Assembly (NCBI RefSeq): GCF_041248615.1
Contig: NZ_CP158426.1
DNA: 64,000 nt
Origin: Escherichia coli
Lineage (GTDB): Bacteria; Pseudomonadota; Gammaproteobacteria; Enterobacterales; Enterobacteriaceae
Direction: 5' to 3' (one strand)
Under the pieces are notes generated by a model that saw only the letters and a list, made by a program, of their open reading frames with translations, searched no databases and was not told the origin of the DNA. Both the position numbers and the translations under genes were made by a program. Positions 33,584-40,012 of this stretch are shown piece by piece; position 1 is the first letter of the stretch, and the number at the start of each line of letters is the position of its first letter.

Positions 33584-34864
33584 ATGAAATTACTTATTCT
33601 GGGCAACCACACTTGCGGCAATCGTGGCGACAGCGCCATCCTGCGCGGCTTACTTGATGCCATCAACATCCTCAATCCACATGCCGAAGTGGACGTGATG
33701 AGCCGCTATCCGGTCAGTTCTTCCTGGCTACTCAACCGCCCGGTAATGGGCGATCCGCTGTTCCTGCAAATGAAACAACACAACAGCGCGGCGGGCGTTG
33801 TCGGACGCGTTAAAAAAGTCCTCCGTCGCCGCTATCAACACCAGGTACTGCTCTCACGCGTCACCGACACTGGCAAGCTGCGTAATATCGCCATCGCCCA
33901 GGGATTCACTGACTTCGTGCGCCTGCTGTCAGGTTACGACGCCATTATTCAGGTCGGCGGATCGTTTTTTGTCGATCTCTACGGCGTGCCGCAGTTTGAA
34001 CACGCGCTTTGCACATTTATGGCGAAAAAGCCGCTGTTTATGATTGGTCACAGCGTCGGCCCCTTCCAGGATGAGCAATTTAACCAACTGGCGAACTACG
34101 TTTTTGGTCACTGCGACGCGCTGATCCTGCGCGAATCGGTCAGCCTTGATCTGATGAAACGCAGCAATATCACCACTGCAAAAGTTGAACATGGCGTCGA
34201 TACCGCGTGGCTGGTCGATCACCACACAGAAGACTTCACCGCCAGCTATGCCGTTCAACACTGGCTGGACGTTGCCGCACAACAGAAAACGGTGGCCATT
34301 ACCCTGCGCGAACTGGCACCGTTCGACAAACGTCTCGGCACCACTCAACAAGCGTATGAAAAAGCCTTTGCTGGGGTGGTCAATCGCATTCTCGATGAAG
34401 GGTATCAGGTGATTGCGCTCTCCACCTGTACGGGTATCGACAGCTATAACAAAGACGACCGCATGGTGGCGATCAACCTGCGCCAGCACATCAGCGATCC
34501 TACCCGTTATCACGTAGTGATGGATGAACTCAACGATCTGGAAATGGGCAAAATTCTGGGTGCCTGTGAACTCACCATCGGTACGCGCCTGCACTCGGCT
34601 ATTATCTCGATGAATTTCTCCACTCCGGCAATTGCCATCAACTACGAACATAAATCCGCCGGGATTATGCAGCAGCTGGGGCTGCCAGAGATGGCAATTG
34701 ATATCCGTCATTTACTGGACGGCAGCCTGCAAGCGATGGTTGCGGATACCTTAGGCCAGCTTCCGGCGCTGAATGCGCGACTTAGTGAAGCCGTCAGTCG
34801 TGAGCGTCAGACAGGAATGCAGATGGTGCAGTCAGTGCTTGAGCGCATCGGGGAGGCGAAATGA
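33584..34864 (+). CDS. wcaK: Colanic acid pyruvyl transferase
   Basis: 426 aa with N-terminus MKLLILGNHTCGNRGDSAIL, typical of polysaccharide pyruvyl transferases. Confidence 0.9.
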   Translation: MKLLILGNHTCGNRGDSAILRGLLDAINILNPHAEVDVMSRYPVSSSWLLNRPVMGDPLFLQMKQHNSAAGVVGRVKKVLRRRYQHQVLLSRVTDTGKLRNIAIAQGFTDFVRLLSGYDAIIQVGGSFFVDLYGVPQFEHALCTFMAKKPLFMIGHSVGPFQDEQFNQLANYVFGHCDALILRESVSLDLMKRSNITTAKVEHGVDTAWLVDHHTEDFTASYAVQHWLDVAAQQKTVAITLRELAPFDKRLGTTQQAYEKAFAGVVNRILDEGYQVIALSTCTGIDSYNKDDRMVAINLRQHISDPTRYHVVMDELNDLEMGKILGACELTIGTRLHSAIISMNFSTPAIAINYEHKSAGIMQQLGLPEMAIDIRHLLDGSLQAMVADTLGQLPALNARLSEAVSRERQTGMQMVQSVLERIGEAK

Positions 34865-36081
34865 AGGTCGGCTTCTTTTTACTGAAATTCCCGCTGTCTT
34901 CGGAAACCTTCGTCCTCAACCAAATCACTGCGTTTATTGATATGGGCTTTGAGGTGGAGATTGTTGCGCTGCAAAAAGGCGACACACAAAACACCCACGC
35001 GGCATGGACGAAATACAACCTTGCCGCCAGAACCCGCTGGTTACAGGACGAACCTACGGGCAAAGTGGCGAAGCTGCGCCACCGCGCCAGCCAGACCTTA
35101 CGCGGCATTCATCGTAAAAATACCTGGCAGGCGCTCAACCTCAAACGCTATGGTGCCGAGTCGCGGAACCTGATTTTGTCTGCCATTTGCGGCCAGGTCG
35201 CAACACCGTTTCGCGCCGATGTGTTCATCGCTCATTTTGGCCCGGCGGGGGTAACCGCAGCAAAACTACGGGAACTGGGTGTCATTCGCGGCAAAATTGC
35301 CACTATTTTCCATGGTATTGATATCTCCAGTCGGGAAGTGCTCAACCACTACACCCCCGAATATCAGCAACTGTTTCGCCGTGGCGACCTGATGTTACCG
35401 ATAAGCGATCTGTGGGCCGGAAGGCTGCAAAAAATGGGCTGCCCGAGGGAAAAAATCGCCGTATCGCGCATGGGCGTGGACATGACGCGCTTTAGCCCGC
35501 GCCCGGTGAAAGCGCCCGCAACGCCGCTGGAAATCATTTCCGTTGCACGCTTAACCGAGAAAAAAGGCCTGCATGTGGCGATCGAAGCCTGCCGTCAGTT
35601 GAAAGAGCAGGGCGTGGCATTTCGCTATCGCATCCTCGGCATTGGCCCGTGGGAACGACGCCTGCGCACCCTTATCGAACAATATCAACTGGAAGATGTG
35701 GTAGAGATGCCGGGCTTTAAACCGAGCCATGAAGTGAAAGCGATGCTCGACGACGCGGATGTCTTCCTGTTGCCATCGGTTACAGGTGCGGATGGTGATA
35801 TGGAAGGCATTCCGGTGGCGCTAATGGAAGCGATGGCGGTCGGCATTCCGGTGGTTTCTACTCTGCATAGCGGAATACCGGAACTGGTGGAGGCTGACAA
35901 ATCCGGCTGGCTGGTGCCTGAGAACGATGCCCGTGCACTGGCGCAACGACTGGCGGCGTTTAGCCAACTGGACACCGACGAACTGGCACCGGTCGTCAAA
36001 CGTGCGCGCGAAAAAGTCGAACACGATTTTAACCAGCAGGTGATTAACCGAGAACTCGCCAGCTTGCTGCAGGCTTTATAG
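34861..36081 (+). CDS. wcaL: Colanic acid glycosyltransferase (GT4)
   Basis: 406 aa with the GT4 EX7E-type motif [11 protein letters not shown]. Start overlaps the wcaK stop. Confidence 0.9.
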
Positions 36082-36091
36082 AGGAGAACGC

Positions 36092-37486
36092 ATGCCATTT
36101 AAAAAACTCTCCCGACGCACCTTCCTGACGGCAAGCTCGGCGCTTGCCTTCCTCCATACCCCTTTCGCCCGTGCACTTCCTGCCCGGCAAAGCGTTAACA
36201 TTAACGACTACAACCCTCACGACTGGATCGCCTCATTTAAACAAGCCTTCAGCGAAGGGCAAACGGTCGTCGTGCCCGCCGGATTGGTTTGCGACAATAT
36301 CAACACCGGCATCTTCATTCCTGCAGGTAAAACGTTACACATCCTTGGAAGCCTGCGCGGCAACGGCAGAGGGCGATTTGTCTTACAGGACGGCAGCAAG
36401 GTGACAGGGGGGGAGGGCGGCAGTATACATAACATCACCCTGGATGTGCGTGGTTCTGACTGCACCATCAAAGGGCTGGTGATGAGCGGCTTTGGCCCGG
36501 TGACGCAGATCTATATCGGCGGCAAAAACAAACGGGTCATGCGCAACCTGACCATCGATAACCTCACCGTTAGCCACGCTAACTACGCCATCTTACGCCA
36601 GGGATTTCATAACCAGATTATCGGTGCCAATATCACCAATTGTAAGTTCAGCGACTTACAGGGCGACGCCATTGAATGGAACGTGGCAATTAACGACAGT
36701 GATATTTTGATCTCCGACCATGTGATCGAGCGCATCAACTGTACTAACGGCAAAATCAACTGGGGCATTGGCATCGGCCTTGCGGGAAGTACCTACGATA
36801 ATAATTATCCGGAAAACCAGGCAGTGAAAAACTTTGTCGTGGCGAATATCACGGGATCAGATTGTCGGCAACTGATCCATGTTGAAAATGGTAAACATTT
36901 TGTTATCCGTAATATCAAAGCTCGTAATATCACGCCGGATTTCAGTAAGAAAGCAGGTATTGATAACGCCACAGTTGCTATTTATGGTTGTGACAACTTT
37001 GTGATTGATAATATTGAAATGATTAATAGTGCCGGGATGTTAATTGGCTATGGGGTAATTAAAGGCAAATATCTCTCGATACCGCAGAATTTCCGAGTGA
37101 ATGATATTCAACTGGATAATACTCATCTTGCTTATAAATTGCGCGGCATCCAAATCTCCGCCGGGAATGCTGTCTCCTTTGTGGCGCTGACTAACATTGA
37201 GATGAAGCGTGCGTCGCTTGAGCTACACAATAAACCGCAACACCTTTTTATGCGAAATATCAATGTGATGCAGGAATCCTCTGTTGGACCCGCATTGAGC
37301 ATGAACTTCGACATGCGCAAAGACGTACGCGGTGTCTTTATGGCGAAAAAAGAAACACTGCTGTCTCTTGCAAATGTTCATGCGGTGAATGAAAAAGGAC
37401 AAATCTCCGTCGATATCGACAGGATTAATCACCATATTGTTAATGTGGAGAAGATTAACTTTAGATTGCCAGAACGGAGGGAGTAG
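36092..37486 (+). CDS. wcaM: Tat-signal, parallel beta-helix protein of the colanic acid cluster (function unknown)
   Basis: 464 aa. Twin-arginine signal [22 protein letters not shown] and repetitive beta-helix-like segments ([51 protein letters not shown]). Confidence 0.9.
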
Positions 37487-37660
37487 ATTTGCGACCATTC
37501 CTGGAAAAATGGAGCCATACTTAGGAACAATGCTACTGCAATCCACAACGAAGCGGCGTAACATCACAAGTAATTCAGTAATCAATTCAGGGTAATTGAT
37601 GCTGGCGAAAAAAATCGAACAAGCTATAATTCAGCAACCATTTTACAGGTGGATGAAATA

Positions 37661-38554
37661 ATGACGAATTTAAAAGCAGTTATTCCTGTAGCGGGTCTTG
37701 GGATGCATATGTTGCCTGCCACTAAGGCGATTCCCAAAGAGATGCTACCGATCGTCGATAAGCCAATGATTCAGTACATCGTTGACGAGATTGTGGCTGC
37801 AGGGATCAAAGAAATCCTCCTGGTAACTCACGCTTCCAAGAACGCGGTCGAAAACCACTTCGACACCTCTTATGAATTAGAATCTCTCCTTGAACAGCGC
37901 GTGAAGCGTCAACTGCTGGCGGAAGTACAGTCCATTTGCCCGCCGGGCGTGACAATTATGAACGTGCGTCAGGGCGAACCTTTAGGTTTGGGCCACTCCA
38001 TTTTATGTGCACGACCTGCCATTGGTGACAATCCATTTGTCGTGGTGCTGCCAGACGTTGTGATCGACGACGCCAGCGCCGACCCGCTGCGCTACAACCT
38101 TGCTGCCATGATTGCGCGCTTCAACGAAACGGGCCGCAGCCAGGTGCTGGCAAAACGTATGCCGGGTGACCTCTCTGAATACTCTGTCATCCAGACCAAA
38201 GAGCCGCTGGACCGCGAAGGTAAAGTCAGCCGCATTGTTGAATTCATCGAAAAACCGGATCAGCCGCAGACGCTGGACTCAGACATCATGGCCGTTGGTC
38301 GCTATGTGCTTTCTGCAGATATTTGGCCGGAACTTGAACGCACTCAGCCTGGTGCATGGGGGCGTATTCAGCTGACTGATGCCATCGCTGAACTGGCGAA
38401 AAAACAGTCCGTTGATGCCGTGCTGATGACAGGTGACAGCTACGACTGCGGTAAAAAAATGGGGTATATGCAGGCATTTGTGAAGTATGGACTACGCAAC
38501 CTGAAAGAAGGGGCGAAGTTCCGTAAAGGGATTGAGAAGCTGTTAAGCGAGTAA
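37661..38554 (+). CDS. galF: UTP-glucose-1-phosphate uridylyltransferase-like protein
   Basis: Track ORF 37649..38554 trimmed to ATG 37661 ([14 protein letters not shown]), giving 297 aa. Confidence 0.93.
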
Positions 38555-38595
38555 CAAATTCCTGACTGGAAGTGTCGGTCAGTAAGTAATTAAAA

Positions 38596-38657
38596 ACGGC
38601 AGTGAAGATTCATAGCATAAGTTTTGCTCATTGAATCTCACTGCCGTTGTCTTTTTT
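38596..38657 (+). terminator. Rho-independent terminator after galF
   Basis: Left arm acggcagtgaagattca (38596-38612) and right arm tgaatctcactgccgt (38632-38647) pair over 16-17 bp, followed by tgtctttttt. Confidence 0.8.
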
Positions 38658-38813
38658 ATAAGTACAATAAAAACAGCATGTTAGCTTGCAATCATAGTTC
38701 AAATTTTTCCAGGATTTTCCTTGTTTCTACAGCTGTTTGGTAAGACAATTAGCGTTTGAATTTTTCGGATTTGGCACGAGTGGGTTACGCTCGTCACATC
38801 GTGGAAATGTACG

Positions 38814-38852
38814 CAGTACTCTGGTAGCTGTTAAGCCAGGGGCGGTAGCGTG
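38814..38852 (+). promoter_or_regulatory. JUMPStart element with ops site upstream of the O-antigen cluster
   Basis: cagtactctggtagctgttaagccaggGGCGGTAGCGTG. The ops core is at 38841-38852, 75 bp upstream of the rmlB start. Confidence 0.88.
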
Positions 38853-38926
38853 CATTAATGCATCTATTAATCAAATCTGGAGCAGTCTATTTCACAGCAT
38901 GCTCTCTGGCTATATGGAATAAAAAA

Positions 38927-40012
38927 GTGAAGATACTTGTTACTGGTGGCGCAGGATTTATTGGTTCTGCTGTTGTTCGTCACATAATAAATAATACGCA
39001 AGATAGTGTTGTTAATGTCGATAAATTAACATACGCCGGAAACCTGGAATCACTCGCTGAAATTTCTGATTCTGAACGTTATTCATTTGAGCATGCAGAT
39101 ATCTGCGATGCCGAAGCGATGGCTCGTATTTTCGCACAGCACCAGCCAGACGCGGTGATGCACCTGGCAGCAGAGAGCCACGTTGACCGCTCAATAACTG
39201 GCCCTGCGGCATTTATTGAAACCAATATTGTGGGTACTTATGTTCTTTTAGAAGCGGCGCGCAATTATTGGTCTGGTCTGGATGATGAAAAGAAAAAAAA
39301 CTTCCGTTTTCATCATATTTCTACTGATGAGGTGTATGGTGACTTACCCCATCCGGATGAAGTAAATAGCAATGAAACGTTGCCGCTATTTACGGAAACG
39401 ACAGCATACGCGCCAAGTAGTCCATATTCTGCTTCTAAAGCTTCCAGCGATCATTTGGTTCGCGCATGGAAACGTACTTATGGTTTACCGACCATTGTGA
39501 CTAATTGCTCGAACAACTATGGTCCTTATCATTTCCCGGAAAAGCTTATTCCACTGGTTATTCTTAATGCACTGGAAGGTAAGGCATTACCTATTTATGG
39601 CAAAGGAGATCAGATCCGCGACTGGTTGTATGTAGAGGATCATGCTCGAGCGTTATATACCGTCGTAACCGAAGGTAAAGCGGGCGAAACTTATAACATT
39701 GGTGGACACAACGAAAAGAAAAACATCGACGTAGTGTTCACTATTTGTGATTTGTTGGATGAGATAGTCCCGAAAGAGAAATCTTATCGTGAGCAAATTA
39801 CCTATGTTGCTGATCGCCCAGGGCATGATCGCCGTTATGCAATTGATGCCGATAAAATTAGCCGCGAATTGGGCTGGAAACCGCAAGAAACGTTTGAGAG
39901 CGGTATTCGTAAAACGGTGGAATGGTATCTGGCTAATACAAATTGGGTTGAGAATGTGAAAAGCGGTGCTTATCAGTCGTGGATTGAACAGAACTATGAG
40001 GGCCGCCATTAA
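38927..40012 (+). CDS. rmlB: dTDP-glucose 4,6-dehydratase
   Basis: Track ORF 38858..40012 trimmed to GTG 38927 ([14 protein letters not shown]), giving 361 aa. Catalytic YSASK. Confidence 0.93.

Follow-up and report, generated by a model that had tools for sequence, protein, structure and literature searches.

In the present study, we analysed wcaM, the terminal gene of the colanic acid (wca/cps) cluster, in a 64,000-nucleotide stretch of the Escherichia coli contig NZ_CP158426.1 (RefSeq assembly GCF_041248615.1; hereafter the window), where it lies between wcaL and galF. WcaM is probably a soluble periplasmic endo-colanidase exported by the twin-arginine translocation (Tat) pathway, that is, a colanic-acid-specific endo-glycoside hydrolase with a tailspike-type β-helix. 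The decisive evidence for a link between WcaM and colanidases comes from comparison of the sequences themselves, and it is stronger than that given by the fold together with the export route.

Homology of WcaM to phage colanidases

A phmmer search of WcaM against all PDB sequences (E ≤ 10) matched a single protein, gp150 of phage phi92, with an E value of 2.5e-24 over WcaM residues 163-349. BLASTP of the same pair gave an E value of 2e-26 and 32% identity across approximately 190 amino acids. When a profile of the 30-sequence family alignment was used against PDB, gp150 was again the only credible match, and the other hits were weak and unrelated. According to Xu 2025, to the extent that it is cited in PMC13450770, gp150 hydrolyses colanic acid at the Glc-Fuc linkage. 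The protein has been crystallized with the colanic acid repeat unit (PDB 6E0W; apo form 6E0V); no catalytic residues were named in the papers that refer to these two structures. For the enzyme of phage NST1, considered here for its activity only, a repeat-unit product without monosaccharides was described.

Other databases pointed in the same direction. PHROG 6117, 'colanic acid degradation', matched WcaM residues 86-460 with an E value of 2.9e-51. WcaM homologs were detected by tblastn in 248 phage records, many of which were labelled colanic-acid-degrading protein or tailspike colanidase, and some phage genes bear the annotation 'colanic acid biosynthesis protein wcaM'. The Pfam label PF27800 'WcaM' covers phi92 gp150 as well as the WcaM orthologs, on which it is found as a precomputed label. 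In addition, mature WcaM aligned end to end, at approximately 35% identity, with some fibres of podophages whose N-terminal adaptor is of the T7 type; one of them, P0190, covered WcaM residues 32-460.

Several members of this family were observed at unusual places. Enterobacter sp. encodes a gp150-like PF27800 protein of 594 amino acids (P0137; L010 8001-9785), which is 49% identical to phi92 gp150 and has neither a signal peptide nor a phage adaptor. Its gene is located on a bacterial chromosome directly 3' of a gene for a YfaZ-family outer-membrane protein and near dcm/vsr, in neither a prophage nor an exopolysaccharide (EPS) cluster, and similar proteins of 560-605 amino acids form a group. 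Another protein of 605 amino acids, P0260, combines a Tat-like N-terminus (SRRKFI) with a C-terminal domain (FPYGIEFITGDLIIDT...) common to the phage-type protein P0203; judging from these sequences, this hybrid may link the cellular forms to the phage forms as an intermediate. The records of Campylobacter phage C3 (MG065656) and Acinetobacter phage vB_AbaM_ABPW7 (OP562383) contain colanidase genes as in E. coli phages, and these match WcaM just like the phi92-type and Phapecoctavirus-type genes. The Acinetobacter host assignment of vB_AbaM_ABPW7 has already been doubted in a review.

Predicted fold of WcaM

The structure of WcaM was predicted by AlphaFold2 from the 30-sequence alignment without templates. 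The model had a mean pLDDT (predicted local distance difference test) of 88.2 and a pTM (predicted template modelling score) of 0.87. Residues 1-30 were disordered, all-β coils began at about residue 31, and a helix at residues 45-55 capped the N-terminal end of the β-helix. In the model, three-strand coils are stacked in one long helix, which corresponds to the right-handed parallel β-helix (pectin-lyase-like) fold.

Foldseek against PDB returned the phi92 gp150 colanidase tailspike (6E0V) as the top match, with an E value of 1e-14 and a TMq of 0.76. The next matches, the tailspikes phi29 gp12, HK620 and Sf6, were approximately nine orders of magnitude weaker than 6E0V. In BFVD, the library of viral structures, the top six matches were all phage tailspike or tail-fibre proteins, five of them with a TMq of 0.74-0.78. 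Three of the six were named colanidase or WcaM and one tail fiber protein; two were unnamed.

Conserved residues and architecture of the family

Two alignments were used to search for conserved residues: a narrow one, in which WcaM was aligned with 11 orthologs and with 18 phage or other members, and a wider one of 86 diverse sequences, in which representatives of clusters at 50% identity were combined with phage proteins. D192, E195, N197, W224, Y235, Q260, H263 and E265 were among the invariant columns of the narrow alignment, as were the whole motif G-D-A-I-E-W-N, the stretch from W224 through G229, and G232. In the wider alignment, G225, H263 and E265 were found in all 86 sequences, D192 in 84 of 85 and E195 in 81 of 85, while N197 and Q260 were among the positions showing at least 90% identity. 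Overall, D192, E195, N197, W224, Q260, H263 and E265 were kept in 94-100% of these 86 cellular and phage members. According to DSSP, the conserved motifs of the model occupy the short strands of consecutive coils (strands 194-197, 228-231, 260-265 and 293-298), so that they would stack on, or line, one face of the predicted helix. D192, E195, H263 and E265 are proposed, from their conservation, as candidate catalytic residues.

The family is small, comprising 185 clusters at 50% identity among 1.84 billion representatives, and contains two kinds of proteins. The short forms have 370-500 amino acids, mostly carry a twin-arginine (RR) signal and end approximately 110-145 residues after the core (approximately 144 in WcaM). 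The long forms have 550-1016 amino acids, phage N-terminal adaptors in place of a signal and approximately 280 residues after the core. In a rough neighbour-joining tree (without support values), the short cellular and the long phage forms interleave, which hints at repeated exchange between phages and the EPS loci of their hosts.

Predicted Tat signal of the cellular proteins

The N-terminus of WcaM carries the motif listed in Table 1, followed by a weakly hydrophobic h-region (mean Kyte-Doolittle hydropathy 0.79) and by A26-R-A28, which places an Arg in the c-region. Among 197 full-length WcaM-like proteins, [ST]RRxF[LIV] was present within the first 30 residues in 196, while the remaining signal peptide varies freely; to judge from these sequences, the motif has been conserved well beyond chance. 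A basic residue in the c-region (x-R-[AS]) was found in 126 of the 197. The AlphaFold2 model was unstructured in this part, with pLDDT below 50 at residues 1-7 and 14-30. A lipoprotein fate was ruled out, since the first 33 residues contain no Cys and thus no lipobox.

The RR motif was found again in most of the distant homologs of approximately 400-500 amino acids (approximately 30-40% identity), including those of Raoultella, Bradyrhizobium and metagenomes, and it was absent from the long phage-type members. Tat targeting thus appears to be a conserved property of the cellular WcaM branch. In the homolog of Bradyrhizobium sp. 150 (P0344), the start was annotated too far downstream; the in-frame sequence ahead of it (L003 9839-10000) reads ...LISRRSLVAIAAVLPVAVPTARSALA, a Tat-type signal with no stop in between. 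A signal-peptide reporter test for Tat was reportedly described by Tullman-Ercek et al. in 2007. WcaM has been listed among the Tat substrates in four papers (PMC7549933, PMC3027627, PMC8262268 and PMC9604234).

These results agree with a first-pass annotation of the window made from the sequence alone. It had described a twin-arginine signal with an AxA cleavage site, which corresponds to SRRTFLT at residues 7-13 and ARA at residues 26-28 and to the motif found in 196 of the 197 relatives, and a β-helix of the tailspike type, for which the all-β model and the β-helix tailspikes at the top of both fold searches now speak. It had also suggested searching by fold against tailspike depolymerases, and the gp150 colanidase ranked first in PDB. 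The coordinates it gave for the open reading frame (ORF), 36092-37486, were right, and the N-terminal peptide it quoted was exact.

The wcaM gene and its translation signals

The features of wcaM and its product are listed in Table 1. The Shine-Dalgarno sequence, as read from the window, overlaps the stop codon of wcaL (36079-36081). Because of this overlap and the 5-nucleotide distance to the ATG, wcaM is tightly packed behind wcaL and was taken as the last gene of the operon. The order wcaK-wcaL-wcaM-galF-rfbB is annotated in RefSeq E. coli chromosomes that are 100% identical to the window over 34000-39000.

Table 1 Features of wcaM and of its product in the window
Feature	Residues	Position	Strand	Remarks
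wcaM coding sequence		36092..37486	+	Uninterrupted ORF; ATG start; 464 codons and a stop at 37484-37486
Shine-Dalgarno sequence GAGGAG of wcaM		36081..36086	+	Read directly from the sequence; 5 nt from its end to the ATG
Predicted Tat signal peptide	1-28	36092..36175	+	Predicted cleavage by signal peptidase I after A26-R27-A28
Twin-arginine motif S-R-R-T-F-L-T	7-13	36110..36130	+	Sequence; conservation
Predicted mature protein	29-464	36176..37483	+	436 amino acids, ~48 kDa, pI 8.9; predicted single right-handed parallel β-helix
Most conserved core	163-349	36578..37138	+	Sequence match to phage colanidase gp150, 32% identity
Motif G-D-A-I-E-W-N	191-197	36662..36682	+	Candidate catalytic carboxylates D192 and E195, plus N197
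Trp/Gly-rich loop-strand motif	223-233	36758..36790	+	Next coil; conservation
Motif with H263 and E265	258-268	36863..36895	+	Candidate catalytic residues; absolutely invariant

The product was recognized by two NCBIfam equivalogs, NF007517 (1017.4 bits against a cutoff of 808, end to end over residues 1-464) and TIGR04004 (964.3 bits against a cutoff of 794.6, also covering residues 1-464). A local Pfam-A scan gave no domain above threshold and only a sub-threshold TAT_signal, and a simple scan for terminators downstream of wcaM found nothing. Farther downstream, the rfbB ORF as called mechanically (38858-40012) begins approximately 25 codons 5' of the conserved N-terminus, and a later start is probably the real one. 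It would leave a galF-rfbB spacer of approximately 300 nucleotides, where the JUMPStart element would lie.

Selection, distribution and genomic context

Four E. coli alleles of wcaM were compared. Their synonymous divergence (dS) was 0.19-0.26 and their nonsynonymous divergence (dN) approximately 0.01-0.02, giving dN/dS ratios of 0.04-0.07. The high dS is in keeping with linkage to the adjacent O-antigen region, which recombines. Of 5426 complete E. coli genomes, 4627 contained at least 80% of wcaM. Approximately 600 complete genomes matched parts of the 5-kb wcaK-rfbB stretch and gave no megablast match to wcaM; these may have divergent alleles, or may have lost or truncated the gene. A WcaM labelled 'E. 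coli' with 74% identity does exist (P0109), and wcaM has been reported as lost or truncated in group 1 capsule and O89 strains (PMC6128206).

For synteny, we used the best 80 loci of a scan of genome contigs with a pattern taken from the motif at residues 223-233; these were colanic acid loci of the Enterobacteriaceae type only, a few of them under mismatched organism names. The order wcaJ-wzxC-wcaK-wcaL-wcaM-galF was complete in 75 of the 80 species loci, and the other five showed shorter subsets of it, partly on short contigs. Among the five wca proteins compared across the 80 species, WcaM was the most divergent, with a median identity of 75% versus 79-89%. Under Rcs activation, the transcript levels of wcaM mirror those of wza (PMC8117528). 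Enterobacterial-type WcaM or whole colanic acid loci were also seen in assemblies labelled Vagococcus sp. WN89Y, Bacillus amyloliquefaciens and Chryseobacterium sp. 18061 (P0049, P0365, L026 and L079); these assemblies are most likely contaminated or mislabelled.

Distant homologs were examined in five contexts: Raoultella planticola, a related metagenomic contig, Bradyrhizobium sp. 150 and two lineages from root or soil metagenomes. All five lay inside Wzx/Wzy EPS clusters with a polymerase of the WcaD family. These clusters also hold a WcaJ-like initiating transferase, GT2/GT4 transferases, a hexapeptide acetyltransferase and usually genes for GDP-fucose, and they were therefore regarded as colanic-acid-like gene sets.

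Proposed function and alternative explanations

Here, we propose a model for the action of WcaM. The gene would be co-transcribed as the final gene of the Rcs-controlled wca operon, and its product would fold in the cytoplasm and be exported via Tat. Removal of the signal peptide after ARA(28) would then yield a soluble 48-kDa periplasmic enzyme. In the assembly of group 1 capsules and colanic acid, chains are polymerized in Wzy-type fashion on the periplasmic side and leave through Wzc/Wza; access of WcaM to its substrate is thus plausible. WcaM may encounter colanic acid chains at the periplasmic face while WcaD (Wzy) is polymerizing them on undecaprenyl-PP, either ahead of their export by Wza/Wzc or in the course of it, and may cut them between repeat units by means of the conserved D192/E195/H263/E265 centre. 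Single cytoplasmic repeat units would not be a substrate for an endo-enzyme, and the same was argued by the authors of the study on the stewartan hydrolase WceF (PMC7949094). By analogy with WceF, AlgL, BcsZ and PslG, glycanases of other EPS loci for which such a function has been demonstrated or suggested, we favour trimming of the chain length and/or clearing of mis-exported polymer stalled in the periplasm as the outcome.

Several points weigh against this model. In the searchable literature, enzymatic, localization or chain-length results for WcaM were not found. A wcaM deletion of Salmonella has been used as a 'colanic-acid-deficient' strain and had a real phenotype (PMC8171120); if the polymer is truly absent from it, WcaM would have a role beyond trimming. 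In a mouse model of extraintestinal pathogenic E. coli (ExPEC), the wcaM deletion led to no fitness defect (competitive index 0.89, not significant). WcaM also has neither the N-terminal anchor of the phage enzymes nor approximately 135 of their C-terminal residues, and if the active site or the stability of gp150 needs trimer contacts, the shorter and possibly monomeric WcaM could behave differently. Finally, the Pfam hidden Markov model for Tat signals (PF10518 TAT_signal) gave 12.5 bits and an E value of 0.15 on WcaM, under its gathering score of 22.7; this model is short and known to miss true Tat signals, and the sub-threshold score weakens the case only slightly.

The phenotypes of the Salmonella deletions would not obviously be explained by a mere trimming enzyme, and for this reason we also considered a periplasmic release step, so far missing from this Wzy-dependent pathway, in which WcaM cuts the nascent chain near its reducing end and frees colanic acid from an undecaprenyl-PP stub. 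The stub would stay as a primer, the chain length would be set by the cut, and colanic acid would be a free slime instead of a capsule held by an anchor. Such a step would be in line with Salmonella wcaM deletions serving as colanic-acid-deficient strains, and with the reciprocal content of wcaM and wzi reported for E. coli: wcaM terminates the colanic acid loci and is missing from those of group 1 capsules, and wzi has been described as found only in the latter (PMC6128206). The fixed pairing of WcaM with a WcaD-type polymerase would then represent a module of polymerase and cutter. We regard this step as quite unlikely. That WcaM binds colanic acid without cutting it, as a lectin-like periplasmic guide or co-factor of WcaD or Wzc/Wza, is likewise an unlikely explanation, if slightly less so. 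The residues that it has in common with the active phage enzymes (D192, E195, H263 and E265) are polar or charged and kept at 94-100% (n = 86), a full catalytic set that would not be expected in a binding-only protein at a dN/dS of approximately 0.05, and its co-occurrence with WcaD may simply reflect colanic-acid-like clusters with the same gene set.

Periplasmic modification of colanic acid in place of hydrolysis, whether by an epimerase, an acetyl/pyruvyl esterase or a lyase that attacks the 4-substituted glucuronic acid in the side chain, seems very unlikely. No similarity to such enzymes was detected at the sequence level, gp150 being the sole credible PDB match with both the single sequence (E ≤ 10) and the profile, and the homologous phage enzymes, as far as the available accounts of them go, hydrolyse the polymer to oligosaccharides of the repeat unit. 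The relationship to phages also raised the question of whether WcaM is a domesticated or decaying fragment of a tailspike, carried along beside the O-antigen recombination hot spot but without a present-day role in colanic acid biology. The position of wcaM at the end of the operon, adjoining the highly recombining galF/O-antigen region, and its dS of 0.19-0.26 are in line with such a relic, as are the divergence of WcaM relative to the other four wca proteins, the interleaved tree and the ExPEC deletion without a defect in vivo. However, the gene is under strong purifying selection, as seen from the dN/dS above, and is intact and fixed in position across the Enterobacteriaceae; homologs with a Tat signal occur in EPS clusters as far off as Bradyrhizobium, and the conserved Tat motif is missing in the phage forms. 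We thus consider a relic highly improbable, and a periplasmic endo-colanidase is retained as the favoured explanation.

Prior assignments and significance

In a paper from 2022 (PMC9143390), WcaM was the only protein without a role in the 20-gene colanic acid operon of E. coli K-12. All the other wca genes were assigned there, in agreement with the first-pass annotation, which had held that WcaM is unlikely to be a transferase. It had also stated that the function of WcaM is not established, and the searchable literature indeed assigns no activity to the protein. Its suggestion of a periplasmic glycan-cleaving enzyme gains support from the homology to gp150 and from the retained carboxylates and His, while the activity itself remains at the level of a prediction.

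The wcaM gene, its Tat signal and its pectin-lyase-like fold are already catalogued in databases, and the relationship of WcaM to phage colanidases can already be read, indirectly, from Pfam PF27800 and from phage annotations. No paper that pairs WcaM with tailspikes or assigns a hydrolase function to it was found in the searchable literature, subscription journals lying outside the search. A likely substrate and candidate catalytic residues of WcaM can now be named from these comparisons, and the homology to a characterized phage colanidase makes a long-standing gap in a pathway of a model organism directly testable. If the proposed function is correct, colanic acid would join the exopolysaccharides whose loci encode their own depolymerase, and phage tailspikes would be seen to exchange one and the same catalytic module with the EPS loci of their hosts. 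The common practice of treating Salmonella wcaM deletions as 'colanic-acid-negative' would then have to be checked.

Comparison with known systems

Glycanases or lyases are encoded together with the machinery for their own polymer in several EPS loci: AlgL for alginate, BcsZ for cellulose, PslG for Psl and Vibrio RbmB for VPS. WcaM would be a still unproven member of this kind, a self-depolymerase encoded in an EPS locus with an ancestry among phage tailspikes. AlgL, BcsZ and PslG differ from WcaM in fold and family (RbmB being the exception), and all four differ in chemistry, several being lyases, are mostly exported by Sec rather than Tat, and show no sequence similarity to WcaM. Similarly, the periplasmic or secreted β-helix C5-epimerases AlgG and AlgE4 have no sequence-level similarity to WcaM, whose phage homologs are hydrolases. 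To our knowledge, no epimerised uronate occurs in colanic acid.

WceF of Pantoea stewartii has a Tat signal and a tailspike-like right-handed β-helix and is encoded in a Wzx/Wzy EPS cluster; it cleaves the EPS of its own producer into repeat units, and its knockout leads to longer chains (PMC7949094). WcaM resembles it in being the product of an EPS-cluster gene, in its predicted export and in its predicted tailspike-like β-helix. Homology between the two was rejected, since WceF was not matched in PDB with either the single sequence or the family profile, and the likeness is one of functional analogy only.

With the phage colanidases of the phi92 gp150 type, WcaM has in common the β-helix catalytic domain and the invariant polar residues. 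It differs from them in being a cellular protein encoded in a biosynthetic operon, whereas the gp150-type enzymes are phage-borne. A Tat signal stands where the phage colanidases have an N-terminus of approximately 180-500 amino acids for attachment to the virion, and the part after the core is about half as long as in the phage forms (approximately 144 versus 280 amino acids). Lacking an anchor and having a short C-terminus, WcaM is not itself a tailspike and only carries the enzymatic domain of one. The activity of gp150 has been measured, according to the cited account, whereas that of WcaM is predicted from its sequence. Furthermore, gp150 attacks colanic acid from the outside as a barrier to be breached, whereas WcaM would act on the same polymer inside the envelope of its producer.

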